Part shown: in pieces, positions 15,596-55,115 of the stretch
Layout of the letters: every line of letters begins with the position of its first letter
How positions within the stretch are numbered: position 1 is the first letter of the stretch
Virus record (IMG/VR): IMGVR_UViG_3300045988_179398
Location: 32,001-96,000 of that record
Length of the DNA: 64,000 nt
Source: a virus
Reading direction: 5' to 3' (one strand)
The notes under the pieces: generated by a model
What the model was told of the DNA's origin: nothing
Database searches by the model: none
What the model saw: only the letters and a program-made list of their open reading frames with translations
Made by a program: the position numbers and the translations under genes

Positions 15596-16636
15596 ATGGC
15601 AAGAACGACGGTTTATAACGAAGATTTGTCAAAAGAATGGCAGGTCGTCAATCCAAAAAACCAAAAATTATTGCGGGAGTTTGTGCGTTATTGCGTCGCG
15701 AACGATAAAAGCCCGCACACTTGTAATCAATACGAATCGCAGCTCAAAATCTTTTTCTGCTGGAATTACAGAGAAAACGCCGACAAGTTTTTTATCGACG
15801 TTAAGAAGCGCGATTTGGTCAACTTTTTCGGCTGGGGGAGAGAAATCGGATGGAGCCCGTGTCGGCTCGCCTCTCTCCGCGCCGTGTTGAGCTCGTTCAG
15901 CAATTACATCGAACGAATACTCGACGAAGATTACCCCACGTTTAGGAATCTTGTAAAGGTTCTCGAGCCGATCCATCTCGAAGCCGTCCGCGAAAAGACG
16001 ATTATCGAGAAAGACGATATAATGGCGGGGATTGAGCGATTGGTCGCACTTGGCGAGTACCAATACGCGTGTTTTCTCTCGCTTCTCTTTTCATCTGGAA
16101 TGCGCAAGTCCGAAGCGGTGCAAATGAAGGTTTCGTTTTTCACGACCGAAAGACAAGATGCTCTCGGTGGGCTCGCTTATATGACCCCAAAAATCAGGAC
16201 GAAAGGACACGGAGCGCGGGGCAAACAAGTTCAAAGGTACGTTTTTAAGGAAACCTTTGACAAATACTTTGACTTATGGATGAAGGAGCGCGAAAAGCTT
16301 GGCGTGAAAACCGACGCGCTTTTTGTTATAAAAGGCGGGTATGAAGATTACCAACCCGCGAAATCGCAAAATTTCTCCCATTGGGCGCAGAAAATCGGCG
16401 AGCTGATAGGCGTTGAATCGTTATATTGCCACAGCCTGCGACACGCGTTCACCACGTACTTAAAGCGTAACGGAACGCCAACCGACGTGGTACAAAAACT
16501 CCAATCTTGGGGAAGTGCGGATATGGTTGCGAGATATGACGATCGAAGCGAAAGCGAAGAGTTGGACGAGTTCTTCTCGACGCTTTCTGGTGAAAAAACA
16601 ACGGTTAAGGAGGAATGTGATTTATGGCAGAAGTAA
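15596..16636 (+). CDS. Tyrosine recombinase / integrase
   Basis: N-terminal SAM-like core-binding region. Catalytic signature SGMRKSEA (Arg), HSLRHAFTTY (His-x-x-Arg) and a C-terminal ..SADMVARYDD (Tyr). AGGAGG upstream. Confidence 0.85.
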   Translation: MARTTVYNEDLSKEWQVVNPKNQKLLREFVRYCVANDKSPHTCNQYESQLKIFFCWNYRENADKFFIDVKKRDLVNFFGWGREIGWSPCRLASLRAVLSSFSNYIERILDEDYPTFRNLVKVLEPIHLEAVREKTIIEKDDIMAGIERLVALGEYQYACFLSLLFSSGMRKSEAVQMKVSFFTTERQDALGGLAYMTPKIRTKGHGARGKQVQRYVFKETFDKYFDLWMKEREKLGVKTDALFVIKGGYEDYQPAKSQNFSHWAQKIGELIGVESLYCHSLRHAFTTYLKRNGTPTDVVQKLQSWGSADMVARYDDRSESEELDEFFSTLSGEKTTVKEECDLWQK

Positions 16637-17724
16637 TAGGCGATAACACCATACCGAACGGGTTATCGGCAAACGTAATGCGCGAGTTGTTACAGAGCAA
16701 AAATATGCTCAAAAACAAAGGCGATATGTATATAGGTACTGGAATACAGGAAAACGGAGTATATAAAACGGGAATTTTATCTGGCCCGAGCAAAGGCGGT
16801 TTGGTTTTAGCGGGGACAAATGCGGGAAGTGGTGTCGATGTTCAATACAAATCAGCACTTGATATTTTAAATGAAGATTTAACCATTGGTGATTCCGATG
16901 GAATACACATAGGTAAAAGTGCCGAGACGTCTAATGGAGGCGTAGCGATTGGCGTGTTCGCAGAAGCTAAAAATGATGGGACCACCTCATATGGAAATTA
17001 TGCAAAAAGCCTTGGCAAATATTCGGCTGCCATTGGTAATTTGGCAAATGCAACTGCTGAATACGCATACCAATTAGGGCCTGGAGAGAACAGTGTTGCA
17101 AATTCATTAAAATTCATAAATACACAAATTGTGGACGGGACGGGGAACGTAAATGCCACAAAAATAAACGGAGTGTTGAGCACGGAGATTTTTGAAAGTG
17201 ATGGGAAGACGGCAAAAAATAGTACGTTGGCGCAAAGTGTTGTTAATGGCTCTATTATAAAAGATTCATTCAAAACTCCTAAGCAATTGGTTTCGCATTC
17301 AATTTGCATTAAAGCATCGAATTTCTCAATGGAAGTTGCGGTCCTCTGTGTTAATAATAGTGACCCTTATGGTAATAACTTTTTAAATTTTTGCAAAGAC
17401 TATGAGACCACTGCGGTCGTTCGTGCGGAGCATTTGATGGTTTGTGGATACATAAATAGGGAAAGCGATGGAAGCGGCTTATCTATAAATATTAAACCAG
17501 TGATGAAGATGTGGAGAATATCGGCGGGTCAGGTTTTTCAATATGAAATTAATTTTACTGGAGTAGAGTATAATTCGACCACAAATCGTACAGAACAAAC
17601 GTCCTTATCTTTATATATACGAAATGGAGACGATGGAACCAAGGCTTATAAATATATAGAACCGACTTCTGGCGAACCAGTTTATACCATGTATGACTTG
17701 GCTTATTCGGTAACTGGGGTATAA
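16624..17724 (+). CDS. Fibre-like/receptor-binding candidate
   Basis: 366 aa, overlaps the integrase stop by 13 nt. Gly/Asn/Ser-rich repetitive middle part. Last gene before a strong terminator. Confidence 0.45.
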   Translation: MAEVIGDNTIPNGLSANVMRELLQSKNMLKNKGDMYIGTGIQENGVYKTGILSGPSKGGLVLAGTNAGSGVDVQYKSALDILNEDLTIGDSDGIHIGKSAETSNGGVAIGVFAEAKNDGTTSYGNYAKSLGKYSAAIGNLANATAEYAYQLGPGENSVANSLKFINTQIVDGTGNVNATKINGVLSTEIFESDGKTAKNSTLAQSVVNGSIIKDSFKTPKQLVSHSICIKASNFSMEVAVLCVNNSDPYGNNFLNFCKDYETTAVVRAEHLMVCGYINRESDGSGLSINIKPVMKMWRISAGQVFQYEINFTGVEYNSTTNRTEQTSLSLYIRNGDDGTKAYKYIEPTSGEPVYTMYDLAYSVTGV

Positions 17725-17836
17725 TATCTTTTATGTCGATAATTTATGTAATAATATAAATAAAGATAGTTGCAATTAAATAAAACCCTCGTTTTATTAC
17801 AAGGAAAAAATTTAGGATATTTTTTTTGGTAAAATT

Positions 17837-17869
17837 AGAGACTTCGCTACGCGCGAGGTCTCTTTTTTA
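17837..17869 (+). terminator. Rho-independent terminator
   Basis: AGAGACTTCGC (17837-17847) pairs with GCGAGGTCTCT (17853-17863), 11 bp including one G-U, followed by TTTTTT. Confidence 0.75.
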
Positions 17870-17926
17870 CTATATTTTTTGGAATTTAGGAACTTTAAAT
17901 TAGAAAATAATCACAGGAGGAATGAT

Positions 17927-18370
17927 ATGTTTGAATTAAAAGAAAAAATGCTGGAGATTTATAACGAAGGCGACAAAAAAATACCGTTAGAACGTTATCG
18001 TTCCGAGGGTGTTAGATATATACAAGACAATATTCGGAGCGTTGCGTATGATTCAATCACGCGAACGTATTCGGAGAGCGGAAATAGACGACTAATTGAT
18101 TTACCTGATTTATTTAATTCGGTCAGGTTTAATCAACTCGACCAATGGAATTTTGATATGATGATTGACAAATCGTTAATTTACGAGAAGCAAAATCGAT
18201 TACGGCAAAACGAAGAGGTTTACGGAATGTCGAGTTTGATATATCGAGACGCGACGGAATTTAGCGAGAATGATTTAATCAGAATGCAAGTTCGATTGGA
18301 AAACGATGTAGAAAAATTTATAGATACGAATTTTACGGAATATTTAGGTAAATTGGTTAGGAGGAAATAA
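17927..18370 (+). CDS. Hypothetical protein upstream of tape measure (possible tail assembly chaperone by position only)
   Basis: Start set at MFELKEK after CAGGAGG; the track's 17879 start lies inside the AT-rich leader. Confidence 0.45.
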   Translation: MFELKEKMLEIYNEGDKKIPLERYRSEGVRYIQDNIRSVAYDSITRTYSESGNRRLIDLPDLFNSVRFNQLDQWNFDMMIDKSLIYEKQNRLRQNEEVYGMSSLIYRDATEFSENDLIRMQVRLENDVEKFIDTNFTEYLGKLVRRK

Positions 18371-18375
18371 AGTTT

Positions 18376-21300
18376 ATGATAATGAATCGTGCTGAATTAG
18401 ATAAATATTTGGCTAATAATATAGTTTATACTGGCGAATATCTCGAAGCTATGTCTGCGAAAGACTTTGCAACTTTAAACGAAGCCGCGAAAAAGAAGGT
18501 TCAAGAAATGGCTAAGCGCGGAAGAGAAGAGAGTGCGATGAAAGGGTCTTTGGCGGATATGGAAGCAAAGGCTAAAAGTCTTGGATATGATGTTGCGTAC
18601 AATGTAAACAAAAAAACTAATGAAATAGAAGTCATCTTGGTTGAAAAAGGGCAAGATGTAAAGAAAAATTATGAAAAAGTTGCGGCTGAAGCACCGACCT
18701 TCAAACTTTCTATCGGCGAAGGAACTCGTGGCGGAAAGGGAAGAATGGCTGCGCCAAAATCTTACGCACCACACGTTAGCAAAAGCGGCAAAGGGACTGT
18801 TTTACTCACACAGGTGGAAGAAACTATAAATAGTGTTACTGACGCTTTGTCAAAGCTCGACAGCAGAAAAACAAGACCCGACAAAGGATATGTTAAACAT
18901 GAAGTGAAGAAAGCACAGCGGTTGGCAGAACAATCTATCGTTACGACCGAGGGCTATTCGGTTGTTGATGAAGATAAATTCATGGAAGAAATGAAAAGAG
19001 AAACCTCGAATGCAAGAGGACAATTTGTTCGAACTAGTATGAGAGTAGGCGGCTTAATTGGCGAAGTTATTAAAAAAAGCAATTTTACCAAAAATATAAC
19101 AGCTGCTCAGAGATTAACACAGGACGAACTTAAAGCTCTTAATCAAAAGGCGGACGCGGTTGTAACGAAATACCTTGCGATTTATGCACAAGAAGGAGAA
19201 AAAGCAGCCGATAATTATTTTAAAGCCACCAAGGTCTTAAAAGACGATTTTAAATTGAGTGAAGATGATATTAAAGCTCAATTAGAAGCGGTTAAATCTG
19301 GATTTGGTGACTTTTTATATTTGCCGTCTTCCTTTGGTTTGAGCGGTGATAACGCTTTAAATACGAAAAAATTTTCCTATGTAGGCGATAGAGATTTAGC
19401 ATTCCGTCCATCCACGAGAACTGGTAGACATACGTCGCAAACAAGGAATTATCTCGAACGTAGCCAAAGAGCAAAATCAAGAGTCAAAAAAAGAGCCACG
19501 GAACGTTTTATTCCTGATGTTGATAAAGCAGATACTTCTTATTATAAAGAAATGGGGCATCAATTATATAAGCGTGGCTTGGTTTCTGGTGGGACTAAGG
19601 ATGGGATTGAATATACTCCGCAGATGTTGGTCACTAAAGCATATGAAGATGCTGCGGCTGCTTATATTGAAGAGAAGGTAAAAAAACTCAAAGAGAGCAA
19701 AAAATATAATAAAGCTTCCGACGCTCGTAAAGCAAAAATGGAAGAAGAATTGCGAGATAATATTCAAAAATCGCTTCCGACGATAGCTCAACTTGGCATT
19801 ATGGAAGATGCTGGTTTAATGAGTGAATCCGCCGCTCGTGAATTCGAATCGAGCAGAATGGTGACGACGACTATTTCTGAAAATGAATACGACAAATTGC
19901 AAAAAGAAGCCAAAGAAAAATACGAAAAACTTTCTGAAAAAGCTAAGAAGGCTGTAAATTTATCGGATTTTACCGATCGATTTATCGCTAAAAAAGCACT
20001 TAAACGCAGTAAACTTTCTGACGTAGATATTTTTCGTAATGGAGCGGAGGGTGCTTTTTCTATATCTGCAACGGAAACAGTTGGTGGAAATAGAGCTAAA
20101 TTGCTTTCGAGATATACTGGCGCTCGTGAAACAGACGTTGCCGTTCCTGATTTTATTTTCAATAGGATGGCAAAAGAGCTTAAGATTGAAGGCGCCGACA
20201 TAATTAGTGCGGCGAAAAAGTTTAAAGCGGAGGAAATTCCTGGGTATTTTCAAGGATTATTAGGTGCTTCTATATCGCAACGAACAGCAGGCAAAAACCA
20301 AGATGAAATAGAAAAAACACTTAAAGATACGGTTGCCGCTTTAAATTCAATCGGCTTTAAAGCTTCACTTGGTGAGAATGGAGAAATTTTTATAGATAAT
20401 TCTGACGAAGCAGTGTCACAGATTAAGTGGGATAAAGCATTGGGTTATCTTGAAAGTCTCAATATTCTTAAGCAAATCGATGGCGGTTTTGAATTTGTAA
20501 ATCCAGCAACAATTATAGAAGATGTTATTAATCAAGCGGATACATACGATCCGTCGAAAAAGGTTAAAACAAGCCCAAAAGAGTATTCAAGTGTAAAACG
20601 TGATATCGCCGAGGCGATGGCTGCCTCTGGAGATAAGAGCAAATTCAAATCTTTGGCGGCAGATGTCGATAGAATGTATGATCCAACCACTGGAGCGTTC
20701 GGCGCCGAAGCCAAAAAGGCATCGGTTGACATAGATGCCATATTGAATAAAAAAACGGGGTCTATAGTAAAAACTTATCAAACGACCATAAGTGGGAAAG
20801 ACAGAATAAAAGACGTCACTTCTCTTAAGAGAAAAAGTTATAAAGGGAAGATGAAAAATAAAAAGGGTGCTCACTATATAATATCCGTTGGGCGTGGTTC
20901 TGGGTACACCATTGACGCCTCTCAGTTAGAAATGGCAGCAATCAATTATCAAGAGGCTGGCGGTTTGCTTACTCGTGAAGATTATGAAAACACAGTTCTT
21001 GGTACAATTAATAAAGTCAAGTCGGAAATACTCACGAATGATACAACTGCCTCGGTAGATGTCATGATCGATCCTGGCACTGATTTTGGATTTGGTATGT
21101 CGTTCGATGGAGAAAACGCCTCGGAAGGAGCAACTGGAAGATTTTTGGTTTTGCCAAATGTTGAAATAGACACTGTGCAAAAGGATGGCGAAACATTATA
21201 TAGTTTGCCAAGTTACAACAAAGAGATTCATTCTCTCATTGGTTCGATTAAATCGGGGCAAGGGGATAGCGGTAAAATAGCACAAGAGTTAAATAAGAAA

Positions 21301-24300
21301 ATGTTTGATGCCGCACATTCAAGCAAAGGGACGTTGTGGCAAAAGGCGCATACTAAGCGACAGGGCGGATCAACGAGTGGTCACATTACTGGCATATCTC
21401 AAGATGCGATTGATAAAGCGTTAGCTGAAGGCGATATCGAAAAAGCAAAGAGATTGGCTTCCGATATCTGGGTAAGCGAAAAAGCAATGATGGAAATGCT
21501 TTCCAGCAAAACCCCTTATACAAGCGCAGATGGTGTTTATAATGTTTCCGAACATCAAAATTTTTTAACAGAAGCGGTGAAGCACTTATATAAAGACGAA
21601 GCTGGTGGTATACTCGATGGTTTAAGTGGTTCCGATGACGAAAAAAATAAAATATTATCCAGAGCAATTGCTCAAAGAATAGCAGATGATAAATTTACTG
21701 GCGCAAAAGAAGGGTTGGCGGGCATAATGAACCGTTTCCCGTCGATTGCACAATTATCAGCTGTTTTCAGTAGTTACCATGTTTCTTCCCAATTACAAGG
21801 GAAAGATATAATGGTTGGTGCCGCAATTGCAAAATTTGTAAACGGCGACTATGACGGAGATACTTTGCAACTTGTATTGGGGTTGATGAGCAGCGGAAAA
21901 TCGTTTGAAGAAGCCGATGAAATGGTCGAAAGGCAGCGAGAGAAAAACCTTAATCTTTATAAACAGATGTTCTCGAAAGGAAAAGGTGAGCCGCTCGATA
22001 AAACTGTCGCAACTCTAACAGATGCGCAAAAATTATCAGACCCGAAATATATGGGATTGTCTGCGTTGGCGGCTAAATTCAATAAACCTTATACGGGAAT
22101 GTTTTCTAATATTTCCACGCGTATAAGAGAAGGGTTGAAATTTACTGGTTTTGATGTTATCGATGAGCAAGGCAATCCAAGAGAATTATCTTCGGTTAAT
22201 GATTATATCGACGTAATAAGAGGTAAATTAGTTGCTGGCGTTGGGCAAATATTGGAACAAGATAGTATTTCTTCTAAAAAGGTCGAAAAGCGTTTAGATG
22301 AAGCAAGGAAAGCGAAAGGAAGAGATTTAACATCCGAAGAAGAAGAGGCAGAGCAACTTAAAGTTTTGCAAGAGTTTGAAGATTTGTATAATATGATGAG
22401 GGATCCGAAATCCTCATATTCCGATATTATAGGAAGAATGTCCGAAATGGGATTATTCGGTTCAGACGTCACTCAAATTTCAAGCACTTTAAGCTCAAAT
22501 ATTTTAGGATTGTTAAAAGGCGTATCTGGCGAAGATAGAAATATAATTCTTTCGAGACTCGGAATTTCTGAAGACGATTTAACGAAAGGTGCTTTATCAT
22601 CAGATGTTTATAAAAATGCTGGGAATGCTTTGGAAAACCAACTTGTTGATCCAACCACAGGAAAGCGGCTCAAAATATTCGCAGGCGAGTATGGAACTGG
22701 TTTAGCAACCTCGAGATCTTTCACCCCTTATATGAAGCAGGATACCTATGAGCTTCTTAGGTTTTTAAAATCATTGGAAGATGTTAATAGCGTATTAAAA
22801 AAGACTGGCGAAATAATTGATGAAAATGGTAACAAATTCAATCAGTATGGTGAGAGAATTAAAGAAGCGAAATCTTCGTTGGCGGCAGAAGCAGGGCAAG
22901 AATCTGCAAAAGTTGTTATTGCTGCTAAAGAAGGAAAGACGATAGAAAGGAATGTTGATATTTACCAGAAATTATCTGAAAAATTAAAGACGGCTGGTAA
23001 TAATTATAACGAGATTAACCGTTTATCGACTTCTGAGCTAAAAAGCAGATTACTTCCTTACGGCGGAGAACAAACGACTGGAATCGACGAGAAAACTTTA
23101 AATAGCGTTTATCGAAAAATCAAAGCTGGCAAAACGTTTACAAAAGCAGAACTCGCTACGCAATTTGGTGTCGAGGACGAAAAGGCGTTAAACTCATTAT
23201 TCCTTGGTAATTTAAGTACCGTTCGTGGTAATTATATCCATAACTTATCGCAGGGAGATGTTAAAGGCGCAAGGAAAGAAAAACTGAAACTTCAAAAAAT
23301 GTTTGGAGTTTTGGGGTATTCAGATGAGCAAATCGCAAGCACGTTTGATACATATAAGGCTGGCGCCAAAAACGTAAAGGCTATAACTAAACAATACGGC
23401 AGGTCTTTGGGCTCAGAAATTCCTTTTATCGGAATGACGAGTGATGGGCAATACGTTGTCAATGCTCGAGGAGACGAATTTTTCGTTGGCGAGCGTGCAA
23501 ATCCGTTTTATGATAAAGACTTTAAAGATCCAAATCAAAAGAAGATGCAAAGGGTCTTTACCGCTGTTGATTATAAAACACATACAAGTGGGAAACTCGA
23601 AGACTCTGATATTGTTCAAGGTGTAATATACAAAACATTTCTTGAAGATTTACAGACACGTTTAAAGAGTATAAAAGGCGACGTAGATATTGATTCTTTC
23701 CGTGCCGAAGTTAGTAAAGGTATGAAATATACCTCGAAAACAGAAGAAAGAGAAGCTTTGCTTGCTAAAATTACACCAGATCTTATTAAAAACCTGAAAG
23801 AATCAGATGTTGTTCAAACAGAAATTATTGTTGTAAATCCCTCAACTGGTTCTGCTCAAGCATATTCCGTTGGGGCTGATAAAGATAAATTCAAAGTAGC
23901 ACGTGATATAATTCTTAGTGGCGATACTTCTCCTTTAACATCGGAAGAGAAGACTTCGGTAAAAAGCGTAGCGAAGAAAAGGACTGACGCAAGATACTTT
24001 AAACCAGGCGAACAACAAGAAGGGATTGGAAGTATAGAGGATAAACTCAAACAAAGTGGTGGTGTTACCGCTGAGCAAAAGAACGAATCTCAAAAAGAGT
24101 ATAACACTCTCGTTTCAGAAGAGTTTAAACTCAAAAAAGAAATCGCTGCTCTCGATAAAGAACGCTGGAAGTTGACCAATATTGAAGGCAAAAAGAGCAC
24201 CGACTATACAGTTCAAAATCTCGATGCGGAAAAACAATGGCGCCAAGACGAGTTAAAACGTATGCAAGATCGCAAAGCCGAACTTGAGGGTTTGGGTGCG

Positions 24301-24974
24301 GTTGAAAGTAAAGCGACAACGGCTTCGAATGAAGAAAAAATGACCGCGTATTTGACGCGATTAGGCGTCGGCGCAGATGGGAAAATGGCTTTAACACCCG
24401 AAGAACAGGCAGATTACTGGTCTCAATACGAGCGTGCGCTTGACAAACAGGCTCGCGCGGAAGAAGAGATTTTCGGTATTCGAAATAAAGCGCAGACAAG
24501 TTACGGAACAGAGAAAAACTTACTTTATCAAATTGCAGACGAGAAAGAAAAAGCGCTGGTAACGGATAAAGCAAATGTCGCAATGCTCGAAAAGATTGTT
24601 GGCAAACTTGATCCGACCCGTCTTGCGAACATCAAAGAACAGGTTGCACTTAACCAACAGCTTTATAAACTGCAAGCACTCAAACAAACCCGTGGCGCGA
24701 CCTCTATTTGGGACGTTATGGCGAACGATATTCGTCGTGCGACCATGCGTATTGCAGACTTCGGAATTGCTGCGAAGGTTTTAAACAAGATTCCGCAGGA
24801 TATACAGAAGGTAATTCAGTATACGAAAGAGTTAGACGCGGCGATGACGAATATCAGAATCGTTAGCGGAAAATCGATGGAAGAAGCGCAGGAATTTATG
24901 CGCGGATTACAACAAATAGCACAAAAAACAGGTACAACTTTAAGCGAGTTGGCGAGTGCTGCCAACGAGTGGCT
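18376..24974 (+). CDS. Giant tail protein, exon 1: N-terminal two-barrel RNA-polymerase-like module + coiled-coil region + start of TP901-type tape-measure core
   Basis: AGGAGG upstream. Residues 1119-1162 (NRFPS...GK-x12-NGDYDGD) align with the RNAP beta-prime active-site barrel. KGKMKNKKG...VDVMIDPGTDFGFGMS is beta-like. The C-terminal ...SGKSMEEAQEFMRGLQQIAQKTGTTLSELASAANEWL is the canonical start of the tape-measure core. The apparent stop at 25008 lies inside the intron. Confidence 0.8.
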
Positions 24975-25281
24975 TGACGATTGTCTGGGTCACTATAAAC
25001 TCCTTTAATTGCTGGAACCCCCTTAGAACCATATAGCTACAACATAACGATGAAATATGCGCAAGTGTGATAGTTGAAAATATATGGATTGGGAAATCAG
25101 CAGCCAAGCCTCGAATAGAGGAAGGTTCAACGAATATGTTCCACGAGTGTGGATAATGGGGAGCTCTACATAGAGAAATCTATGCGAAAGATATATTCTG
25201 AACTTCTGGGGAAACTCAGAGAAAATTCTATTATAGAATCTTTTAAATGATAAACTAAATTTAAAAGTAACACAATTACAG
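24975..25281 (+). ncRNA. Group I intron (ORF-less) interrupting the tape-measure gene
   Basis: All four conserved elements occur in the correct order: P AATTGCTGGAA (25007-17), Q AATCAGCAGCC (25095-105), R GTTCAACGAATAT (25125-37) and S AAGATATATTC (25188-98). P4 TGCTG/CAGCA and P7 GAATAT/ATATTC pair perfectly. P1 pairs exon AGTGGCTT (24968-75) with GGGTCACT (24987-94), placing a U-G wobble at the splice site. G25281 serves as omega-G. P10 pairs ACAA (25282-85) with TTGT (24981-84). Boundaries are +/-1 nt. Confidence 0.85.
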
Positions 25282-28200
25282 ACAAGGTTATGAAAGCACT
25301 GAGGAGATAGAAGAACTTCTCGACGCTTCGACAAAATTAAGTAAGCTTGGTATGATACCCGCAAGCGAAAGCGTTAAACTCTTAACGTCGAGCTTAAAAG
25401 GTATGAAGTTATCCGCGAACGAAGCGATTTCCGTCGTTGATAAGTTGACAAAACTTGACATGAAGAGTGCTACGAGTGCGCAGGAACTCGCCCAAGCTTT
25501 AAGCAAGGTTGCAAACTCGGCGCGTCTCGCGAAAGTGTCTCAAGACGAAATTTTGGGTATTCTCAGTGTCGGTATTGAAACGACGCAACAGAGTGGTGAT
25601 GTTATCGGCACGGCTGTCAGAAGTCTTTTGGCAAGGTTCTCAAACGTTAAAGCTTCGAAATTTGGCGGAAGTGGAGAAGAAACCGAGGGAACGTTGAACG
25701 ATACGGAAGCCGTTCTTTCTAAGATTGGAATTCGTATAAGAAGTGCGTCGGGCGAAATGCGCTCGTTTATAGACGTTCTCGATGATGTCGCAGAAAAGTG
25801 GGATACTCTCGATGATGTTTCCCGTAATGCCATCAGTACCGCCATGGCAGGCACTAGACAAAAGGAGATCTTCGCATCAATCATTGAAAATTACGATCGC
25901 GTAAGAGAATTGATAAACGAATCTGCCAATGCCGCAGGAACCGCTGACGAGAAATACACCGCTTACATGGACTCTATGGAGGCGGCGACGAAGCGGCTCC
26001 AAAACGCGTGGGAAGGATTTACTCAATCGCTCGAAACGAGCACGGTAATGAAATCTATTACAAATACGGCTGCGTTTTTTGTCGAAAATGCTGATAAACT
26101 CAAGTATCTTGTGACTTATATAGCAGCCGCTGGTTCAGTAAAATTTTTTAACTTCTTGACCAACAAAGGCGAAACGGGCGGCTGGAAAGGTTTGGTTGCC
26201 AATATCCCGTTTGTAGGCAGAGGAACGAAGACTAACAATATCCTCGAAAGTATTGACAAAAAAGTCGGCAACATCGAGAGAGGTGTCGGAGCGGATTCGT
26301 TAGCAAATCAAACAAAGAATGGTGGTTTCTTTAAAAGGCTTGGCGGTTTCTTAAAAACTGGCTTTGGATTTGGGGATATTTATGATCCAGAAACTGGGAA
26401 GAGTATTTCTTATAGAGAAGCAAAGGCATATGGCAAACTTTTAAAATCGACTACTGGGGGGACCGCAGTAACCGATCCACAAATGAACCAATATGTAAAA
26501 CTCCTTAAACAGCGTAAAATCGGTAATGTCGCGATGGGTGCAACTTCTGCCGTTTTAACTAATCTGTTTACTACGAAACAAGTCGGCGGAAGCGGATTTG
26601 GGAAGCTGGTTAATACAACCAATCAAACCGTAGAAGAAACTACTGGCGATAAAATCGGGAGGACGGTTCTTTCTGGTGCCCTTGCTGGGCTCGGAGGATA
26701 CGTTTTAGGTCCTTTTGGAGCTATAATTGGGCAAACTCTAGGCGAAAATTTTGCAGGAATGTTCTCGACTTGGTTCCATCGTGACGAGCTTGCGATGAAG
26801 CAGCGCGTCGCTGAAGCCAAAGAGAATCTTGCAGCGCTGAAAAACTTGGATACGACCTTAGACAGTATAAATCTTGCAGAAGAAGGCAGCGCTGATGAGT
26901 TCGCGAATAAATTGAGAGATTATTTCACAGATAACCCCGATTTGTTCAAGCCCTTAATAGGATCATTAAACGATAGTAAAGCGATACAGGGAATAGATAG
27001 AATTTCTCAATTAGTGAACTTAGTTAAGAACAATAACACGGCCGACAACGAGAAGATTTTACAGGCGTTGAAAGTCGCTATTCCCAAAGGGAAAATCGGG
27101 GAGATATACGACTCTCAAGAAGAAGAACGCGCGAAAATTATAAAAGAAGAACAATCGGTTATTTATAGTGTTTCACAGTTACGTGATATTTTAGACCGTG
27201 TTAGTCAGGTCGATAAGAGTGTAGATTGGAGCCCCATAATAGGTGGAGATTGGGGCACCATAGAGGGAAGACTGGCCATTTTCGAAAAGCTCCGAGATAT
27301 AAATAGTGAAAATCTTAAGGATATTCTGCCTGATGAGTACATTGATTATTATATAAACAAAGTGAAACCCCTTGCTATAAAAATGCAAGCGCTGGATGAC
27401 GAGATTCTTACCCCGATTGCGCAATTCGGTTTTAATAAGTCTAATATTGCCAATCTTTCGGGGTATGAATTGACCGATCTCGGTGTTGAGGGGGCTGTCA
27501 AAAAGGTTGCAGATACACTGCAAGACGCGGGTTATAATGTCATGACTAACGGTCTGATACATAGGGATATATATGACCAGATTATGAATCAAATTAAAAA
27601 ATCTGATATATATAAGAGTTTGCAGTATGGTACAAAGACCATAGGGGAACTCGACCTAAACAAGGAACAAGATTTAAAGAGATTTGAACAGTTCGCTCAC
27701 GCGTTTGGTATTTCTATAGACAAAGCCGAAAAATTAAAAGAAGAATTCGGAGATTTATCTACTGCGATGGCTTATATGACGCCGCAAGAAGTGCTTGATT
27801 ATTATAATAATTTATCGTCCATATTCAACGATTTGGCTACTAACGCCGCAGTTTCGGCTGAAAACATCGAAAAAATATTAACCGACGAAAATTATAAGAG
27901 TCTTATTCCTTATTTAACCAAAGGGAACGAAGCACTTCAAGCCAACCTTTATAAAAGGTTGTTGGGCGGAGAGAAGGACTTTGTTTATGAGGCATCTTTA
28001 TTTTCTTCGTTAATGTCCAACAAGGATATTTTTGAGAGTTTCACAGATAAGCTCGAAGACGAAGGTTTGAAGAAGAGAATTAGCGAATTAGGCTACACGT
28101 CTTTCCAATCCATTATTTCTGCCGTTCAGGACGGGACCATTAAAGAGAGTGATGAAATTGTTCAAAAGGCAAAAGAAGAAATCGAAGCTTGGAACGTAGA

Positions 28201-29467
28201 ATACAAGAAAGACTTGGAGGGGACCAATAAACTTATTTCTTATCAAACGTCCCTTTTAGACAAACAAATCACTAACCTTAACGACCAAAAATCGGCGTTA
28301 AAAGATGTTAACAATGAGCGCGAAAAAGAGCTTAATCTCATAAAGGCGAGACAAGCACTTGAAGACGCACGGAAAGAAAAGAAGAGGGTTTATCGTGCGG
28401 GTGTCGGGTTTGTTATGGAAAGTAACGAAGAAGCAATAAATTCCGCTCAGAAAGCGCTCGACGATCTTGACGTTGAAAAGAGGCAGGAGGAAATCCAACT
28501 TCGAATAGACGCCCTACAGCAAGAAAAAGATATTCTAGAAAATTTGCCCAAAGAAGAAGAAATGGCGCAGCTTTCGAAGATATATGCTCAATGGGCTGGC
28601 GATGGCGAAGGCAGCATGAACTCTGTTTCCAAGGCAACCGCCGATTTGGTTGCAAAATACAAAGATTCAATCGGGGCGCTGGATGCTTATAAAAAGTTCG
28701 TCGATGAACTTAGGATTGAAAAGCCCAAAGATAATACCCCGCCGTCTTCCAACAACAACACTTTAGGTGCTCGACGTATCAATGTGGGTAGTATTGAGGG
28801 TGTAGATGACGATAAGTATAAGAAAAATTATAGGGGTTACGACGGGATGTCGATCACATTCGACGGAACAACGTATGAAGTGTTAACGTCGAATAAGAAA
28901 GATGATATTAGAGAGCAAGAATTTATCAAAGCCAAGTATAAAGAATTATATAAAAATCCCAAAACAGGAGAAGTTGACGATCCTAAAACAGGAGATGTCG
29001 TCTCCTATGGTGGGAACTATTATGTTTACCACGAAAGTAATACAACTTGGGAAAAAATTCTTAATGAAAGAGATGGCGAAGAGTTAATTAAAGCTTTCCG
29101 TGACAAGGGATATTCTTCTGGAACAACTTCCTTCCAAGGTGGCAGAGCTCTTGTCAATGAGCTCGGAACCGAGGCGGTCATTACTCCAGGCGGCACGCTT
29201 ACCGCGCTTCCTTCGAAGACGGGTATCGTCCCTGCGGACATAACCCGAAATGTTTGGGCACTCGGCGAAGTTGCTCCGACGCTGGTTGCGCAGCTTAGTT
29301 CGCTTAATCAAAAAGCGCTCACTGGCAACGCTGGAAACACGACTTATGAAGAAGGTCAATACATCGATAATCTTACCATGAACGTTTATCCGACAAAGGA
29401 TTACGATATGGATAAGTTGCTTTCCGAGGCGCGTGCCAAGGCGAAGCTCACAAGGCACAACAATTAA
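25282..29467 (+). CDS. Giant tail protein, exon 2: remainder of the tape-measure protein
   Basis: The frame is open upstream of the track's ATG (25352) back to 25271. Splicing gives ...AANEWL-QGYEATEEIEELLDASTKLSKLGMIPASE..., restoring the tape-measure core. The C-terminal ...LVNELGTEAVITPGGTLTALPSKTGIVPA motif is typical of tape measures. Confidence 0.85.
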
Positions 29468-29535: not shown

Positions 29536-30336
29536 ATGTTATATTTAAATTATGCAAAGCCCATACAGGGCGGAAACATCTTGAACTTCTTCGCAGACTC
29601 TGAAAAAGACCTCGAAGCGGTGAGCGGCGGCAAAAAGTTCATAGCGAATAACGGAACGGATTATGGCGTGCCCGCCGATAGTTCTACGGTGATAATCACG
29701 CTGCCCGATAAGACTAAAAAGACATATATGTTGAGTGGCGGCGAGTGGATTGAAAACCCTGGAATAGAGAGTTTTATTAATACAGAGTTAAATCCGACAA
29801 AGATGAGTTTGCCATTGATTGATGCAATTGGAACTTTAGCAAAAAAACCTGCTGATTATTGTCTCGCGCCACAATATGATGAAAAAACTGGGTTTGTATT
29901 TGGAAATGAGTTTATAGAACTACAAACTAATACTCATTTTAATGGAGATGAAACTGGCGCATCAAAACCTATGCCTGGGGAGTTATATATAGTGTTTCTT
30001 CCCGACATAAATGACTTTGGGAGTATAATGACCTCGACAGACCGTGATATTCAATGTGAAACTCCCACCACATATATCTGCAAGGTTGTGGAAACAACAA
30101 ATCAAGATTATTTTTTAATAAATTATGATTGTACTTTGGAAACCCCTGAAGATTATTCTAATTTTTACCAGTATTTGATGAGTGAATTTAACGGTGTTTA
30201 TGACGAGAGATACTCTTCGGTAAAATTTGCCTGTCCATATAATTCATCTGGAGAAATAAGTTTTGCTCTCGGCGGTTTCATAACAAGAGAAAAACGTCTT
30301 AAGTCGATGACTTTTTCGATGATAAGAATTAAATAA
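29536..30336 (+). CDS. Tail-associated protein; N-terminal domain paralogous to ORF 7525
   Basis: AAGGAGAG upstream. Shares a ~70-aa N-terminal domain with ORF 7525-8427 and lies immediately after the tape measure. Confidence 0.55.
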   Translation: MLYLNYAKPIQGGNILNFFADSEKDLEAVSGGKKFIANNGTDYGVPADSSTVIITLPDKTKKTYMLSGGEWIENPGIESFINTELNPTKMSLPLIDAIGTLAKKPADYCLAPQYDEKTGFVFGNEFIELQTNTHFNGDETGASKPMPGELYIVFLPDINDFGSIMTSTDRDIQCETPTTYICKVVETTNQDYFLINYDCTLETPEDYSNFYQYLMSEFNGVYDERYSSVKFACPYNSSGEISFALGGFITREKRLKSMTFSMIRIK

Positions 30337-30453
30337 AATAATGGTTTTATCGCGTTTCCATTAAAAAACGCGTTACCATTAGTTTGGGTGTGGCGGTTGA
30401 GAAAACCTCCCGCCCGCCACGACTCAATAAAAAAATAAAGAGGAGGAAAAATC

Positions 30454-33400
30454 ATGGCGGTTTATAAACCAAGTAATTGCGTCCCGTTTTTATCTTGTTG
30501 GGATTTGACGCAGCCCCAATACATTAGCGGAGAATTGAACACTTCGAATGAAACCGTGACGGGGTATAAAGTTAGAGTTTTAGATAGTGAAAATAACACA
30601 ATTTTTGAAGGGAGCGAGTTTAACCCAATAAACTTTTCAGACAAAGTAATAAACAGCGGTCTCAACGGCTCAATTTTAACTCTTCCCTTAATTGTTTCGG
30701 TTGATAACTTGGAGACTGCGGATGCGCAGTATAATTTTATATATTATCAGAAAGGGCAAAATAAGTGGTATGGTTTTGCCAAAAACTCTTTTTACGAAAT
30801 CTCCAATTTTTCGAACAATTATCCCGACCAGCCATACAAATGGCAGATAACGCTCGCACAGGGTCAGCAAAACATAGATGGTGTTCTTGAACAGCAACCC
30901 TCCGACGAATACTTCGATATGGTAATCGACGAAGCAAAAATTCTCGGCTCGACTGGAAACCGTATTCAGAGTTGGTTGTCGGAAAATATATACAAAGATT
31001 ATTACATTCAATTATACGACGCAAGTAACAACGAACTCGGCGTGAGAACGCGCATCTCGAGTTACGATCATTCTTATGGTTTCATATACCCGCAAGAAAA
31101 TACGATTTCGCAAGAATTGGTCGATAGTGCGAGTTACTTTAAAATCTTCAAAGACACGAATGACCCGCAATACGTTTCAACGGCGAGGTTGATTAATTAC
31201 AGGTTAAAGACCGATATAGACAAGGTTGTGCTTGATGGTAAATTCCCGATAAATACTGAAAGTTTCGATGGTAGATTTAAACCTTCGGGAGATCCTTCTG
31301 TAGTTTCAAACCCTTATTTTACGCAGGTTTATGACGGGGATGTAACGAGTAATGTTACTTACGGAGCTTATACAAGGACAGAGAATACCACACCCCTCGC
31401 GGAAGGTACGACGTTTTTACTTATGTATCAAGGCGATACAAATACCGAACCAAACCCTACTTATAATAAATATAATGGTGTGTTTGCTTTCCAGTCGGCA
31501 GAGTTTAAAGATGGGAAAACCACGATTAAATGGTTACGCCCCGCTAACTTCAACAAATACTCCGATTTTCTTAATCGGTTGATTTGCGTTCAAAGCGAAA
31601 ACACAAATTACAGCACGAGCGCGACGGCAGAAAATCTCGGTACGATTAACCAAACCGAATTGATGTTCTACGACGAAACCGCGATAGGGTTATACCCCGT
31701 TTACGAAGACGGAACCAAGACTCTGAAAGTCGCGGAGGTAACGCTCGCCAATTCCGCGATAGGGAAGCCGCAAAATTTTGAGGGCGGCATCATTTCGTCG
31801 GTAAAGGTCAAAGCTCAACTAACGGGGGTAACCTTAACTGCGATTTGTCTTGGCGGTAATAAGTATGTTGTTAAAGCGCCAGATACATATACAGGAACGG
31901 CAACCGTAAATATCACCTATATGGAAGATAAAGGTGAAGTTTTCAAAAATACGGCGGGAAAGGCGTATATACGCCCGTTTATTGGAATTCATGCGGGCGA
32001 TAAACTTTTTTATGGGAAGGACTTTGCTTCAAGCGTTACAATCGATTATATCGATGACGTCGGTAATTCGAAGAACAAATTTAGCCCGACGTGGTATATC
32101 GAATACAACTCCGCCGAGAAGAAGTTGGACCTCGACGATAAATATTCGATTCGTTCGTTCTTCAAAACAAGCGACGAAAACCCGTTTTACGCAAAAGCTT
32201 CGCCCGTTTTAACCATCGATTGCGATCAATGGGAGAAAGATAGCGAAGATAAATATTACAAAAACGAGTACGGTTATTGCGTATGCAAAAGAAGATATGT
32301 AACATTTAAAGGCACAATTACCAATCGCAACTGGGTTAATTATCAATGGGTATTAACAGACCTTACGACCAACAACACCCAGATTTCCGAGAAAATTTAT
32401 CGCGGTAGTACGGAATGCACTTTTTACGGATTACAAAACGACCATTATTACGAAATATCTTGGATAGTTGAAGACGAGTTTGGCGGCATTTTTACCTGCG
32501 AGCAAGTCTTTTTCTTAGACGTATCCATCAACGACAGCCCGTTCCCGTTCGAAGCGAAATATGAGTGCGAAACGCAATCGGTGCTCATCAACTTCGCCAG
32601 AGATGGCGTAATTATCCCCGATCCTGCATTATATAGTTACGATACGTTTATGGTGAGGGTGGAAGAAGGTTCTAATATTTATCAGCCTTACATTGTGAAA
32701 GGGGAGAAAAATCTCAAGTATACTTATAGGGTTTTGGCTGAAAATAACTTTGACCCCGATAAGGCCGATTACACGATAGAATACGTTGACACCGATACGG
32801 ACAATGGTTATCTTCAATTAGGCGACATACAACCCGAAACTCCGTCCCCCGACCTTACTTATCTTATGAGTTATACGATGACGCAGATAGGAGACTCTGA
32901 ATCGGCAACGGGTGAAATCCCCGCGCCAACATCGGATGATTTTGCGCTCAATTCACAGCACGTTCTTAACGCGAATTTTGTCGGCGATGTGATAACTTAC
33001 GAAATTGACATCGAAGATTTTAACGATTTGCCTGCGCACATAGGGTTAGCGGTAGAATTATTGCCTCCGTCTAAAACTAATGCGGAAGGAGAGGTTGAGG
33101 CAGAAGAAAACCGCAACAAGATAAAGTTGAATTGTTATAAAAAAATCAACAACGGGGCGCCTTTGAATAAATATGAAATCTTTTTCAACATTTTCAAAAA
33201 AGATGGCGGCGGCAAATGGGTAAAAGATGAGAGCGGAAAATGGCAAGAAGAAAATCCCGTTGTCTCAGCATGGATACCCGACAAGGGTTATACGGCAAAA
33301 GACAACCGCGATTATATTCCCACAACACACCCATACGTTTGGGACGGTACGAAACAAGCTCCCGACAATAATTACTTAAACATCACGGGCGAGGGCGCGC

Positions 33401-33795
33401 TAAACAGCAGTTCTTCCGTAATTGTTAATCCGCTCGGCATCACCGATTCGACTGCGAAAAAAGACCGCAGGAGAGTTTGGTATGATAGAAAGACGGAACT
33501 CGTTCAACAAACCGCAGAAGGCGATCAAATCAACGCTTTCAAAGCGGGCGAAGACGGTTATTGGAAATGGCCGAGTGAAAACGAGGGAGATTTTACCTGG
33601 GAAGACGAAGAAGGTACGGAACCCAGCACCATATACTCGCAGACAGAGCTCGTTGGACACACTGGTCGCCAAAACGTCGTTAATTACAAAATGACGTTCA
33701 ACATCGTTGTTAAAAATTACAAAACGTTAAGCGCGAATAAAGATATCGTTTGGCAAGAAAGCATTATCGCTAACGCGTTTATCGAAAAAATATAA
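30454..33795 (+). CDS. Large distal-tail/baseplate-region protein (function unresolved)
   Basis: 1113-aa ORF with GAGGAGG upstream. Its position after the tape measure is where tail-tip/hub proteins usually lie. Confidence 0.5.
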   Translation: MAVYKPSNCVPFLSCWDLTQPQYISGELNTSNETVTGYKVRVLDSENNTIFEGSEFNPINFSDKVINSGLNGSILTLPLIVSVDNLETADAQYNFIYYQKGQNKWYGFAKNSFYEISNFSNNYPDQPYKWQITLAQGQQNIDGVLEQQPSDEYFDMVIDEAKILGSTGNRIQSWLSENIYKDYYIQLYDASNNELGVRTRISSYDHSYGFIYPQENTISQELVDSASYFKIFKDTNDPQYVSTARLINYRLKTDIDKVVLDGKFPINTESFDGRFKPSGDPSVVSNPYFTQVYDGDVTSNVTYGAYTRTENTTPLAEGTTFLLMYQGDTNTEPNPTYNKYNGVFAFQSAEFKDGKTTIKWLRPANFNKYSDFLNRLICVQSENTNYSTSATAENLGTINQTELMFYDETAIGLYPVYEDGTKTLKVAEVTLANSAIGKPQNFEGGIISSVKVKAQLTGVTLTAICLGGNKYVVKAPDTYTGTATVNITYMEDKGEVFKNTAGKAYIRPFIGIHAGDKLFYGKDFASSVTIDYIDDVGNSKNKFSPTWYIEYNSAEKKLDLDDKYSIRSFFKTSDENPFYAKASPVLTIDCDQWEKDSEDKYYKNEYGYCVCKRRYVTFKGTITNRNWVNYQWVLTDLTTNNTQISEKIYRGSTECTFYGLQNDHYYEISWIVEDEFGGIFTCEQVFFLDVSINDSPFPFEAKYECETQSVLINFARDGVIIPDPALYSYDTFMVRVEEGSNIYQPYIVKGEKNLKYTYRVLAENNFDPDKADYTIEYVDTDTDNGYLQLGDIQPETPSPDLTYLMSYTMTQIGDSESATGEIPAPTSDDFALNSQHVLNANFVGDVITYEIDIEDFNDLPAHIGLAVELLPPSKTNAEGEVEAEENRNKIKLNCYKKINNGAPLNKYEIFFNIFKKDGGGKWVKDESGKWQEENPVVSAWIPDKGYTAKDNRDYIPTTHPYVWDGTKQAPDNNYLNITGEGALNSSSSVIVNPLGITDSTAKKDRRRVWYDRKTELVQQTAEGDQINAFKAGEDGYWKWPSENEGDFTWEDEEGTEPSTIYSQTELVGHTGRQNVVNYKMTFNIVVKNYKTLSANKDIVWQESIIANAFIEKI

Positions 33796-33810
33796 AGGAG
33801 GTCGGAAGCA

Positions 33811-34884
33811 ATGGCTAATTCGATGAGAGTATATTTGTCGAAGTACGACAAAGATAAACAAGTAAAAACCATAGGGCAAAAAGTTTATTTCATTAACGTC
33901 TTAAACGGCACGGCTGCCGATCTTGACGCGTCGCAACAAGAGGTAGTGGCTCCGCCGCAAAAGAAGTCTTACCCGTCTAACCCTGCGCAAGCACCCGAAA
34001 TAGTGTGTTTGATAAATTACCAAAAATATTACGACGAGCAAACGGGCAGGCGGTATCTCGAAGAACAAGGTTTCAGCCCGATTACCAAGAGTAATGACGA
34101 TTCTTATTCGGCGATATTTAAACAAGAGATACGCGACACGGGAAGAGTTGACGAAAAGGGCGTCCCTGTATACGAAGAGCTTACGCCGTTAATTCCCGTT
34201 GACACGCAAATAACAAATTTCAAATTCCGAGATTTCAACGTCTCGAATAACAGGACTTATAGGTATATTTTGTACCCGTATGAACAGGCGCCGAAACAGT
34301 CCATTTATAATCTGCAAAAATCGGTTAAAGAACCGATCGGCGTGAATTGGCAAGGGTGGAGTATAACAGAGCTCCACCCCGTCGACGGCTCCAACAAGAA
34401 ATTTACTGCAAGCCCCGACGACGTTTGGGTGTTCAATCTTAACGTTGACACGGGCGAACAGACGCAGAATATTTCGAGACAGGAGCAACAGACGCTCGGA
34501 CAATTCAACCGTTATTCGCAAGGAAGACTCAATTACGTTAGCGGGTCTGTCAACTGCTTACTTGGAAGCGACGTTTTGCCCGCGAGTTACGTTATCAAAA
34601 ATGGCAAAACGGTTAACGAGGGCGGTTATCAAGAAATCAGAAAAACCAACAAAGCCCCGACGTCGAACGAACGCGTCGATATGTTGTTGGCGTGGAGAAG
34701 GCTTGTTATGTCCTCTAACCCGAAACTGCTCAAAGACCGCGCGGGGCAATCATTCCTTGTCACGATAAACAGCTCGACGAATAAACCGATGGACGCAGTG
34801 TATAGACAGCCGAATACGATTAGCTTTACTTGGACGCAAATCGGCACAACTGACGGGCTTCAAATTGTCGGTGTATACGAATAA
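33811..34884 (+). CDS. Hypothetical tail/baseplate-region protein
   Basis: 357-aa ORF with AAGGAGG upstream. Confidence 0.5.
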   Translation: MANSMRVYLSKYDKDKQVKTIGQKVYFINVLNGTAADLDASQQEVVAPPQKKSYPSNPAQAPEIVCLINYQKYYDEQTGRRYLEEQGFSPITKSNDDSYSAIFKQEIRDTGRVDEKGVPVYEELTPLIPVDTQITNFKFRDFNVSNNRTYRYILYPYEQAPKQSIYNLQKSVKEPIGVNWQGWSITELHPVDGSNKKFTASPDDVWVFNLNVDTGEQTQNISRQEQQTLGQFNRYSQGRLNYVSGSVNCLLGSDVLPASYVIKNGKTVNEGGYQEIRKTNKAPTSNERVDMLLAWRRLVMSSNPKLLKDRAGQSFLVTINSSTNKPMDAVYRQPNTISFTWTQIGTTDGLQIVGVYE

Positions 34885-54578: not shown

Positions 54579-55115
54579 ATGCAAGTAAAATGTCAAATTT
54601 GCGGCAAATCAATCGACCGTTCAACTGCATATAAAGTCGTGGTCAGCGGCACGAACAAATATTTTTGCTCGGAAGAAGAATTCAACGCTGATAAAGCCCG
54701 CAAAGACCACGCGAAAGAAGTTCTCGAAACGATTGCGGAGTGTTATCAATATTGCTCTGGTTATGGGGAACCGCCTTATAACGTGGTTAAAAAAGAACTT
54801 AAAGAAAACCTCAAAACGGTCGATATCGAGACGATTTATCAATTCGTAAAAGAAAACCGCGAAAAACTCAAAAAGACGATTGAAAAGAAAATCGAACGAG
54901 ATGGACCGTTTTCGCAGGTTTATTTCTTGTTTAGGTATGTGAGTGGGATAATAAAACGGGAAATACTTGAACACGGTTGGAAGGCGGCACAAGTCGCGCC
55001 GACCATTCAAAAAACTGGGATTGATTTGAATTTTTATAATGTCAAACCGAACACAAATCAACTTAAAAAGAGACGCTCGTTAGATGAATTGGAGGATCAA
55101 CTACTCAGCCCTTAA
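54579..55115 (+). CDS. Hypothetical protein with N-terminal zinc-ribbon (CQICGK...YFCSEE)
   Basis: 178-aa ORF with GGAGGA upstream. Confidence 0.5.
   Translation: MQVKCQICGKSIDRSTAYKVVVSGTNKYFCSEEEFNADKARKDHAKEVLETIAECYQYCSGYGEPPYNVVKKELKENLKTVDIETIYQFVKENREKLKKTIEKKIERDGPFSQVYFLFRYVSGIIKREILEHGWKAAQVAPTIQKTGIDLNFYNVKPNTNQLKKRRSLDELEDQLLSP

Follow-up and report, generated by a model that had tools for sequence, protein, structure and literature searches.

A probably mobile group I intron, free of open reading frames, in the most conserved motif of a phage tape-measure gene, and the question of its 3′ terminus

We analysed a 64,000-nucleotide (nt) stretch of viral DNA (positions 32,001 to 96,000 of the IMG/VR record IMGVR_UViG_3300045988_179398; hereafter the window, numbered from its first letter), in which a giant gene for a tail tape-measure protein is interrupted in the region 24975–25281. 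The interrupting region is a genuine group I intron of an IA-like subgroup, with helices P1 to P9.2 and a P3/P7 pseudoknot. Judged from sequence comparison, it is very probably a mobile intron without an open reading frame (ORF), placed in the W-L-R-Q-G-Y motif of the tape-measure domain, and we infer from the same comparison that it is spliced. The phenomenon is ordinary: mobile group I introns of tape-measure genes, some with endonuclease genes and others lacking them, have been known since 2008 (PMC2504315). The one unusual feature of the window intron is an anomaly at its 3′ terminus.

Identification and fold of the intron

A scan of the window against Rfam at the gathering threshold returned no group I intron match. 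With an E-value threshold, the full RF00028 model (positions 1–253) aligned to 24932–25221 at 47.2 bits, the gathering score being 50, with E = 7e-11 in a local search and 7e-9 over the whole 64-kb window; this match is far beyond chance. The initial annotation of the window, made from its letters alone, had proposed a group I intron here and an Infernal search with RF00028 as a check. That check came out negative at the gathering threshold and positive with the E-value threshold, and the proposed identity was borne out by the match together with covariation and the scores of same-site copies in related loci. These loci, which carry L numbers below, were drawn from IMG/VR, ENA and JGI metagenomes. 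The L012 copy scored 48.5 bits, also just under the gathering score, two diverged same-site copies lay above it (83.4 bits in L007 and 78.7 bits in L302), and the uninterrupted allele in L011 gave no RF00028 match.

The intron RNA fold was more stable than that of shuffled sequence (z = -3.4; 0 of 100 shuffles as stable). With a hand-specified structure, 94.3% of the alignment cells were paired, eight pairs were changed on both sides and none of 500 shuffles matched, compared with 33–45% of cells paired in slid controls on the same structure; RNAalifold reported 14 compensatory pairs. The copies include two ribozyme sub-lineages, the window type and the L007 type, which are only 70–77% identical. 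Helices P1, P3, P5a, P6a, P7, P7.1, P8, P9, P9.1 and P9.2 were all kept between them, by compensatory change or by replacement of whole strands, and all helices were verified in six distinct sequences. Their maintenance by compensatory change across sub-lineages therefore indicates selection on the RNA fold. Both this covariation and the anatomy set out below were observed directly.

The conserved core runs in the order P3-P4-P5-P6-P7-P8-P9 and contains the P, Q, R and S elements and the P3/P7 pseudoknot. The four elements lie where the initial annotation had placed them (P, AATTGCTGGAA, 25007–25017; Q, AATCAGCAGCC, 25095–25105; R, GTTCAACGAATAT, 25125–25137; S, AAGATATATTC, 25188–25198), as do the strands of P4 (TGCTG/CAGCA) and P7 (GAATAT/ATATTC) and an 8-base-pair (bp) P1 between AGTGGCTT (24968–24975) and GGGTCACT (24987–24994). 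P1 was paired at 100% across copies, with the U24974·G24988 wobble in all of them and two compensatory changes, and the guanosine-binding pair of P7, G25132-C25198, was canonical and conserved in both sub-lineages. Subgroup IA traits are the lack of P2, the P7.1 hairpin at 25140–25153 and the P9.1/P9.2 hairpins at 25225–25267, P7.1 and P9.x being kept in both sub-lineages. By these P7.1/P9.x features the intron is assigned to an IA-like subgroup.

In agreement with the initial annotation, the intron is ORF-less, no plus-strand ORF longer than 33 amino acids (aa) being found inside it. A minus-strand ORF of 113 aa (25023..25364) was rejected as a candidate; it crosses the intron–exon boundary and therefore cannot be an intron-encoded gene. 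The intron features, all on the plus strand, are the following.

24975–25278, group I intron as DNA insertion: 304 nt, U24975 to A25278, ORF-less; its removal reproduces the uninterrupted allele L011.
24968–24976, P1 5′ strand: AGUGGCU of the 5′ exon followed by the first two bases of the intron, with the U24974·G24988 wobble in every copy; the compensatory changes are exon G69>C with C93>G of the internal guide sequence (IGS) in L012, and exon C73>G with IGS G89>C in L006/L009/L202.
24981–24994, IGS UUGUCUG-GGUCACU: 24988–24994 (extending to 24986) pairs with the 5′ exon as P1, and 24981/83–24987 pairs with 25279–25285 as P10; bases 24976–24982 differ between copies.
25000–25005, P3 5′ strand CUCCUU: pairs with 25158–25163 in a pseudoknot with P7; differs from the L007-type copy by two compensatory changes.
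25006–25008, in-frame TAA: ends translation of unspliced mRNA 11 codons past the 5′ splice site.
25009–25015, P4 5′ strand UUGCUGG (P element): pairs with 25097–25103 UCAGCAG (Q element).
25029–25087, P5a-type extension: CCAUAUA (25029–25035) with UAUAUGG (25081–25087), enclosing a further stem-loop; in L007-type copies the strands are UUGUAUAA/UUAUACAA, with every pair kept.
25109–25121, P6a hairpin CCUC/GAGG: CUCC/GGAG or CCCC/GGGG in other copies.
25132–25137, P7 5′ strand GAAUAU (R element): pairs with 25193–25198; G25132-C25198 is the expected guanosine-binding pair, and the third pair is A-U in the window and C-G in L007-type copies.
25140–25153, P7.1 hairpin UCCAC gagu GUGGA: between P7 and P3′; subgroup IA feature.
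25158–25163, P3 3′ strand GGGGAG.
25169–25184, P8 hairpin CAUAGA GAAA UCUAUG: L007-type copies have an unrelated helix, GAAUAAAA/UUUUAUUC, instead.
25193–25198, P7 3′ strand AUAUUC (S element).
25203–25221, P9 hairpin with a GAAA tetraloop.
25225–25239, P9.1 hairpin AUUCUA uua UAGAAU: the loop, between 25231 and 25232, is the site of the ~867-nt insert in sibling copies.
25240–25267, P9.2 hairpin CUUUUAAAU ... AUUUAAAAG: one compensatory A-U to G-C change.
25268–25278, 3′ tail UAACACAAUUA: identical in window-, L007- and L002-type copies, with the variant UAACGUAAAUUA in L305; ends in A in every copy.
25279–25281, disputed CAG: exon at the DNA level (last base of the Leu codon, then the AG of the Arg codon AGA), intron only if G25281 is the canonical 3′-terminal G; paired with IGS 24985–24987 in all copies.

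The interrupted tape-measure gene

The host gene is a tail tape-measure gene, a giant late gene split at the most conserved motif, W-L-R-Q-G-Y, of the PF10145/TIGR01760 domain. The 2,210-aa ORF in the ORF list (18376..25008) stops at the in-frame TAA at 25006–25008 and the downstream frame is open from 25271, both as first described; the downstream peptide reads QGYESTEE, and its earlier rendering as QGYEATEE was mistaken. The two exons are the following.

18376–24974, plus strand, 5′ exon: N-terminal ~2,199 codons of the giant ORF, ending ...GAG TGG CT; the tape-measure domain begins in its last ~70 codons.
25279–29467, plus strand, 3′ exon: remaining tape-measure protein through the stop codon, beginning C AGA CAA GGT ..., that is (L)RQGYES....

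On exon 2 alone, the PF10145 match starts only at profile position 31, and the first start codon of this exon, Met at 25352, falls within the domain. Removal of the intron gives an uninterrupted protein of ~3,595 aa, in which single matches run across the junction for PF10145 (108.5–110.9 bits; cut-off 33.2) and TIGR01760 (tape_meas_TP901; 107.9–116.9 bits; cut-off 28.8). One continuous domain is thereby restored, confirming the earlier statement that the intron splits the tape-measure core motif. Distant tape-measure genes in 106 phage records aligned across the junction as one piece, and exon 2 matched 13 PHROG tape-measure families.

The ~2,000 residues that precede the tape-measure domain are nearly orphan: Pfam, PDB sequences and phage tblastn gave no match, and among 5.8 billion proteins a single homolog was found. 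The initial annotation had called this region RNA polymerase (RNAP)-containing. An RNAP-like label has some basis in a weak match to phrog_2987 'RNA polymerase beta subunit' (E 2e-5) and in the motif FVNGDYDGDTLQLV (NGDYDGD; aa ~1091–1169, about 21650–21880), and it is a thinly supported one. The motif FVNGDYDGDTLQLV resembles the NADFDGD catalytic loop of RNA polymerases. If the label is true, an RNAP-like domain would be fused in frame to a tape measure, a protein ejected into the host, which would be of interest. The genes flanking the tape-measure gene, at 16624–18370 and 29536–34884 (366, 163, 266, 1,113 and 357 aa), had no PHROG match, and the 366-, 266- and 1,113-aa proteins, the three scanned against Pfam, had no Pfam match either; annotated families cover the tail module of this phage very poorly.

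Distribution and mobility

Intron-less tape-measure alleles, which the initial annotation had named as the comparison to make, were found: the junction codon is uninterrupted in L003, L005, L008, L011, L209, L220, L221 and others, and the 304-nt segment is absent from them. The L011 allele is 95% identical in protein. Exactly the same codon is interrupted by about 304 nt in the window, L012 and L202, by about 326 nt in L007, L150 and L158, by about 1,171 nt in L006/9, L173 and L205, by about 1,571 nt in L002/4 and by about 2 kb in L305; the same-site copies comprise 14 distinct sequences. Between the window and L012, the introns are 98.3% identical and the flanking exons share 79.5% nucleotide identity, and between the window and L006 the values are 96–100% outside the insert and 78% for the exons. 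The presence/absence polymorphism and these identity patterns are direct observations. Around the intron, a mosaic exon block at ~24695–26270 (-280 to +990 nt) matches the L002/L205 lineage at ~90–91% nucleotide identity, and the gene further upstream (-885 to -111) matches L003 at 83%. The block could be a co-conversion tract left behind by homing or a product of ordinary phage mosaicism.

In the longer copies the same ribozyme holds an insert, either within the P9.1 loop (window position 25231/25232) or after 25224, measuring ~867 nt in L205, L173 and L006/L009, ~1,267 nt in L002/L004 and ~2 kb in L305. These ORF-bearing siblings share the insertion site, the ribozyme and the 3′ junction ...AAUUA[C/U]AGACAAGG with the window intron; they carry a DUF7487 / PD-(D/E)XK-like ORF, whereas the window copy has an intact P9.1 hairpin and is ORF-less. 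The insert ORFs match DUF7487 and, weakly, the DUF559/REase_MTES_1575 nuclease domains. Their E-x-D-G-x-x-H-D motif presumably resembles that of the PD-(D/E)XK 'EDxHD' homing endonucleases, a likeness that we take as a lead only. ORF-bearing and ORF-less versions occur in shared host-gene lineages, L205 with the window and L173 with L012. The features of mobile introns that were observed are thus intron-containing and intron-less alleles at one site, an intron more conserved than its exons and siblings with nuclease-like ORFs; the uninterrupted alleles, the ORF-bearing siblings and the 98% intron versus ~80% exon identity argue for a mobile, ORF-less intron of a known kind.

Related phages have interruptions of this tape-measure domain at no fewer than three other positions, close to residues 124, 200 and 278 of the fragment analysed (L009 3588–5030; L008 3804–5571; L300 3863–4173; L302 4435–4735), and the window is uninterrupted at all further tape-measure intron positions found in relatives. 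By exon homology, the L009, L300 and L302 introns have canonical U...G boundaries; those of L008 are ambiguous. When 185,579 genomes of bacteria and archaea were scanned for the 3′ junction, only chance matches came up, giving no clue to the host.

The initial annotation had also suggested a regulatory role, in which the efficiency of splicing could set how much of a 2,210-aa RNAP-like protein, devoid of the tape measure, is made relative to the full fusion. Unspliced mRNA would indeed terminate at 25006–25008, and partial splicing would be conceivable if the 3′ end were sub-optimal. An early in-frame stop past the 5′ splice site is ordinary, however, and the close relatives L011 and L003 have no intron, others having different early stops (after two codons in the L007 type). 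The exon-1 ORF upstream of the junction is only about 485–600 aa in close relatives; the truncated product is therefore not conserved. The distribution, moreover, is that of a selfish mobile element. We treat the idea of such a regulatory valve as speculation and judge it very unlikely.

The 3′ boundary

Several points weigh against reading the region as a spliced, mobile group I intron. The window copy falls 2.8 bits under the Rfam gathering score, and nuclease activity is ascribed to the sibling ORFs from weak domain matches alone. The remaining points concern the 3′ end. By exon homology, contiguous P10 and the tail lengths of most related introns, the last intron base is A in 14 of 14 distinct copies, against the usual G at this place in four related introns, yet the P7 pair is a normal G-C; and G25281, the only G giving an in-frame fusion, deletes a conserved Arg.

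A sub-threshold score and the lack of a G at the exon-defined 3′ end would be expected of a decayed, non-splicing relic, or of two adjacent genes translated separately without exon ligation. A relic or a gene pair fits poorly, however, with a single conserved domain cut in the middle of its most conserved motif, with an exon 2 that has no start codon before Met 25352, itself inside the domain, with the maintenance of every helix by compensatory change across sub-lineages and with the persistence of the arrangement across many phage lineages. We consider it extremely unlikely, and retain the reading of a splicing intron in what follows.

Uninterrupted alleles read TGG-xTx-(A/C)GN-CAA-GGT, that is W-[L/M]-R-Q-G-Y, and the L011 allele reads GAG TGG CTC AGA CAA GGT (TGGCT/CAGACAAGG, with the slash at the junction), which is reproduced exactly by deleting 24975–25278 from the window. 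At the DNA level the insertion is exactly 24975–25278, 304 nt. The Arg at the junction is found in every close relative aligned, L306 and L304 (31–37% identity) have Arg or Lys at this position, and no Arg-less tape-measure allele was present among the uninterrupted alleles compared. The junctions first proposed, 24974/24975 and 25281/25282, hold the frame but delete this codon (EWL-QGY versus EWL-R-QGY in the uninterrupted alleles).

Alternatively, splicing would retain Arg by ligation at A25278/C25279, the excised intron being the 304-nt insertion and the mRNA reading ...TGG CTC AGA CAA... (EWLRQGY). In L111, L134 and L137, which have the same core and boundaries defined by exon homology, the wobble G precedes TATAAAC by 6 nt, P10 starts at the guide-sequence base adjacent to the wobble G, and the intron ends in G; relatives also have introns with a terminal G at sites 2, 3 and 4 of the same tape-measure gene. 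For the window, the rule from L111, L134 and L137 puts the 5′ splice site at U24974·G24988 and makes C25279, paired with G24987, the first base of the 3′ exon; the last intron base would then be A25278. The P10 so defined (24983–24987 with 25279–25283; 5–7 bp, contiguous with P1) was paired in 100% of cells, with one compensatory change in which G87:C79 covaries with A87:U79. By comparison, the 4-bp P10 of the initial annotation (ACAA/TTGT) is present in the window, but spans only 2–3 bp in most other copies and was paired in 62.5% of cells. Retention of Arg is also favoured by TIGR01760 (116.9 bits with Arg versus 107.9 without, a difference of 9 bits), by the tail after the GUAAC motif, which is 6–7 nt in four canonical relatives and so lines up with A25278, and by U25276-U25277, which can pair with A25201-A25202 in J7/9 as P9.0.

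The chemistry of the second step speaks for a terminal G. In the accepted mechanism, the terminal guanosine of the intron occupies the single G-binding site for exon ligation (PMC2588497). A terminal adenosine would have to fill this site in an intron with the G25132-C25198 pair in both sub-lineages. A G-C pair at this place reportedly specifies G, a point said to go back to Michel in 1989 and to Been and Perrotta in 1991, and no natural group I intron with a terminus other than G is known to us. The 15-nt tail (GUAACACAAUUACAG) that leads to G25281, 3 nt past A25278, equals in length that of the canonical relative L137 (GUAACAUAAGUCUUG), fitting G25281. PF10145 does not discriminate between the two junctions and shows no preference for the Arg version (108.5 bits with Arg versus 110.9 without). 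A second step with a 3′-terminal adenosine could perhaps proceed inefficiently, which would be tolerable as few tape-measure copies are needed per virion.

Other boundaries were tried and rejected. G25267 as the 3′ terminus gives a CTT/TAA stop at the junction or the wrong frame, and G25286/87 deletes more residues (EWLYES, ECYES). A 5′ site after A24977 combined with G25281 keeps the length (L-E/K-Q) but has no U·G and a mismatch in P1. A CTT/AGA junction (intron 24976–25279) keeps Arg and was discarded in favour of CT/C: its terminus would be C (U in the L007 type), U24975 pairs with A and not G in the L007 type, and relatives place the wobble G at G24988. A changed P7 binding pocket was likewise dismissed as the cause of the terminal A. 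The window-type P7 has A-U at the third pair where the consensus is C-G, and the L007 type has a normal GACUAU/AUAGUC yet the same terminal A. The tail resembles that of the site-4 intron in L302 (GUAACAAAUUG/UAGAAC) only weakly, and the remaining intron is unrelated (33.8 bits; tail blastn E 1.6). A 14-mer tail scan of IMG/VR gave almost only chance matches, its sole useful by-product being the canonical L111 intron.

On chemical grounds we lean slightly towards 3′ cleavage after G25281 with loss of Arg, to which we give roughly an even chance. Cleavage after A25278, with a non-G terminus and Arg kept, is a tentative alternative that we consider rather unlikely, and cleavage at neither G25281 nor A25278 takes up the remainder. 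G25281 predicts the ligated junction TGGCTACAAGG and a single junction-spanning peptide ...ANEWLQGYESTEEIEELLDASTK, and A25278 predicts the ligated junction TGGCTCAGACAAGG and an exon-2 tryptic peptide starting QGYESTEEIEELLDASTK. More generally, this tape-measure intron lineage (three sub-types in several host-gene lineages, with ...AAUUA/[C/U]AGACAAGG) may ligate exons after the 3′-terminal A25278 with a normal G-C binding pair, a proposal that we regard as doubtful. If true, the A-terminal lineage would be a case in nature that departs from the omega-G rule of group I splicing; the A terminus might be enabled by strong docking through P10 and P9.0, or low efficiency might be tolerated for a low-copy protein.

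Relation to known introns

The initial annotation overstated the rarity of group I introns in phage structural genes: relatives of the window phage carry at least four sites in the same gene, and tape-measure introns at three sites were described in 2008 (PMC2504315). The latter, TMP-IVS1, TMP-IVS2 and TMP-IVS3, are group I introns (IA1/IA2) of Bacillus cereus-group prophages (Tourasse & Kolsto 2008, PMC2504315). They resemble the window intron in interrupting conserved tape-measure parts at several sites per gene, in occurring with and without homing-endonuclease ORFs, in being near-identical in different phages and in having P1 and P10 adapted to the site. Compared by description, they differ in host phages and insertion site, which here is W-L-R-Q-G-Y of PF10145. 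The part of the article drawn on here mentions no 3′-terminus anomaly.

Relatives of the intron core were found in 193 phage records. In Streptococcus phage Str-PAP-1, a related core lies inside a split, annotated tape-measure gene with two endonuclease genes. Other related-core introns lie in a cold-shock-protein gene (L111), in tape-measure genes at an ...NLKLG/YGG site (L134, together with Str-PAP-1) and in a Walker-A ATPase gene (L137), and further ones in Serratia phage 2050HW (a split RNAP beta gene), SPO1-like Bacillus phages and Vibrio phage ICP1. Their P3–P7 core is ~72–79% identical over ~140 nt, including TATAAACTCCTTTAATTGCTGG. The introns of L111, L134 and L137 occupy other genes or sites and have a normal terminal G by exon homology, in contrast to the exon-defined A of the window intron.

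The L111 intron, at about 1020–1400 of an unrelated viral contig, interrupts the cold-shock-protein gene at ...NGTVKWF/NDRGYGF... with canonical boundaries. L001 2915–4344 corresponds to Serratia phage vB_SmaM_2050HW (MF285618.1, about 95900–97330), in which the RNAP beta gene is annotated as two coding sequences with a 'putative endonuclease' between them. The unannotated gap in this gene holds a group I core ~77–79% identical to the window intron, and by this similarity is probably an unannotated intron.

Classical self-splicing phage introns of IA type include those of T4 td, nrdB and nrdD, of the SPO1 DNA polymerase gene and of Staphylococcus phage Twort orf142. Like the window intron they are small, lie in a phage gene, and have an early in-frame stop, P7.1/P9.x and an optional homing-endonuclease ORF in a peripheral loop. 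Their splicing has been proven experimentally and they end in G, whereas the window intron is known from sequence and has an exon-defined A.

Other features of the window

Two OMEGA-type RNA-guided nuclease genes lie side by side in the phage at 52991–56608, and a tRNA gene follows on the plus strand.

52991–54103, TnpB-like ORF: OrfB_IS605 plus Cas12f1-like TNB.
55096–55300, HEARO RNA (RF02033, 119.6 bits): directly 5′ of the IscB-like ORF.
55328–56608, IscB-like ORF: RRXRR (214.6 bits) plus HNH.
60808–60879, plus strand, tRNA gene (RF00005, 47.4 bits).

Discussion

The course of events that we infer for the intron would be as follows. It would be transcribed within the late mRNA, and ribosomes on unspliced RNA would be halted at the in-frame TAA at 25006. 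Once the RNA has folded, exogenous G would attack after U24974, held in the U·G wobble with G24988, and exon ligation would yield a fusion protein of ~3,595 aa, with the RNAP-like region at its N terminus followed by the tape measure. At the DNA level the intron would spread by homing, with a putative endonuclease supplied in trans by ORF-bearing siblings during co-infection. The ORF-less state would then be one phase of the usual gain-and-loss cycle.

For annotation, the ORFs of 2,210 and 1,371 aa should be joined into a single gene of about 3,595 codons, which gene callers will split. In the wider gut-metagenome phage family, introns of several types have colonised the tape-measure gene at four or more sites, which makes this family well suited as a natural model of homing and of how endonuclease ORFs are gained and lost. 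As to the 3′ end, either a homing intron strips a conserved residue from its host protein at each invasion, or here is a natural group I intron that can do without a terminal G, and either outcome would be of interest to specialists in ribozymes and mobile elements.

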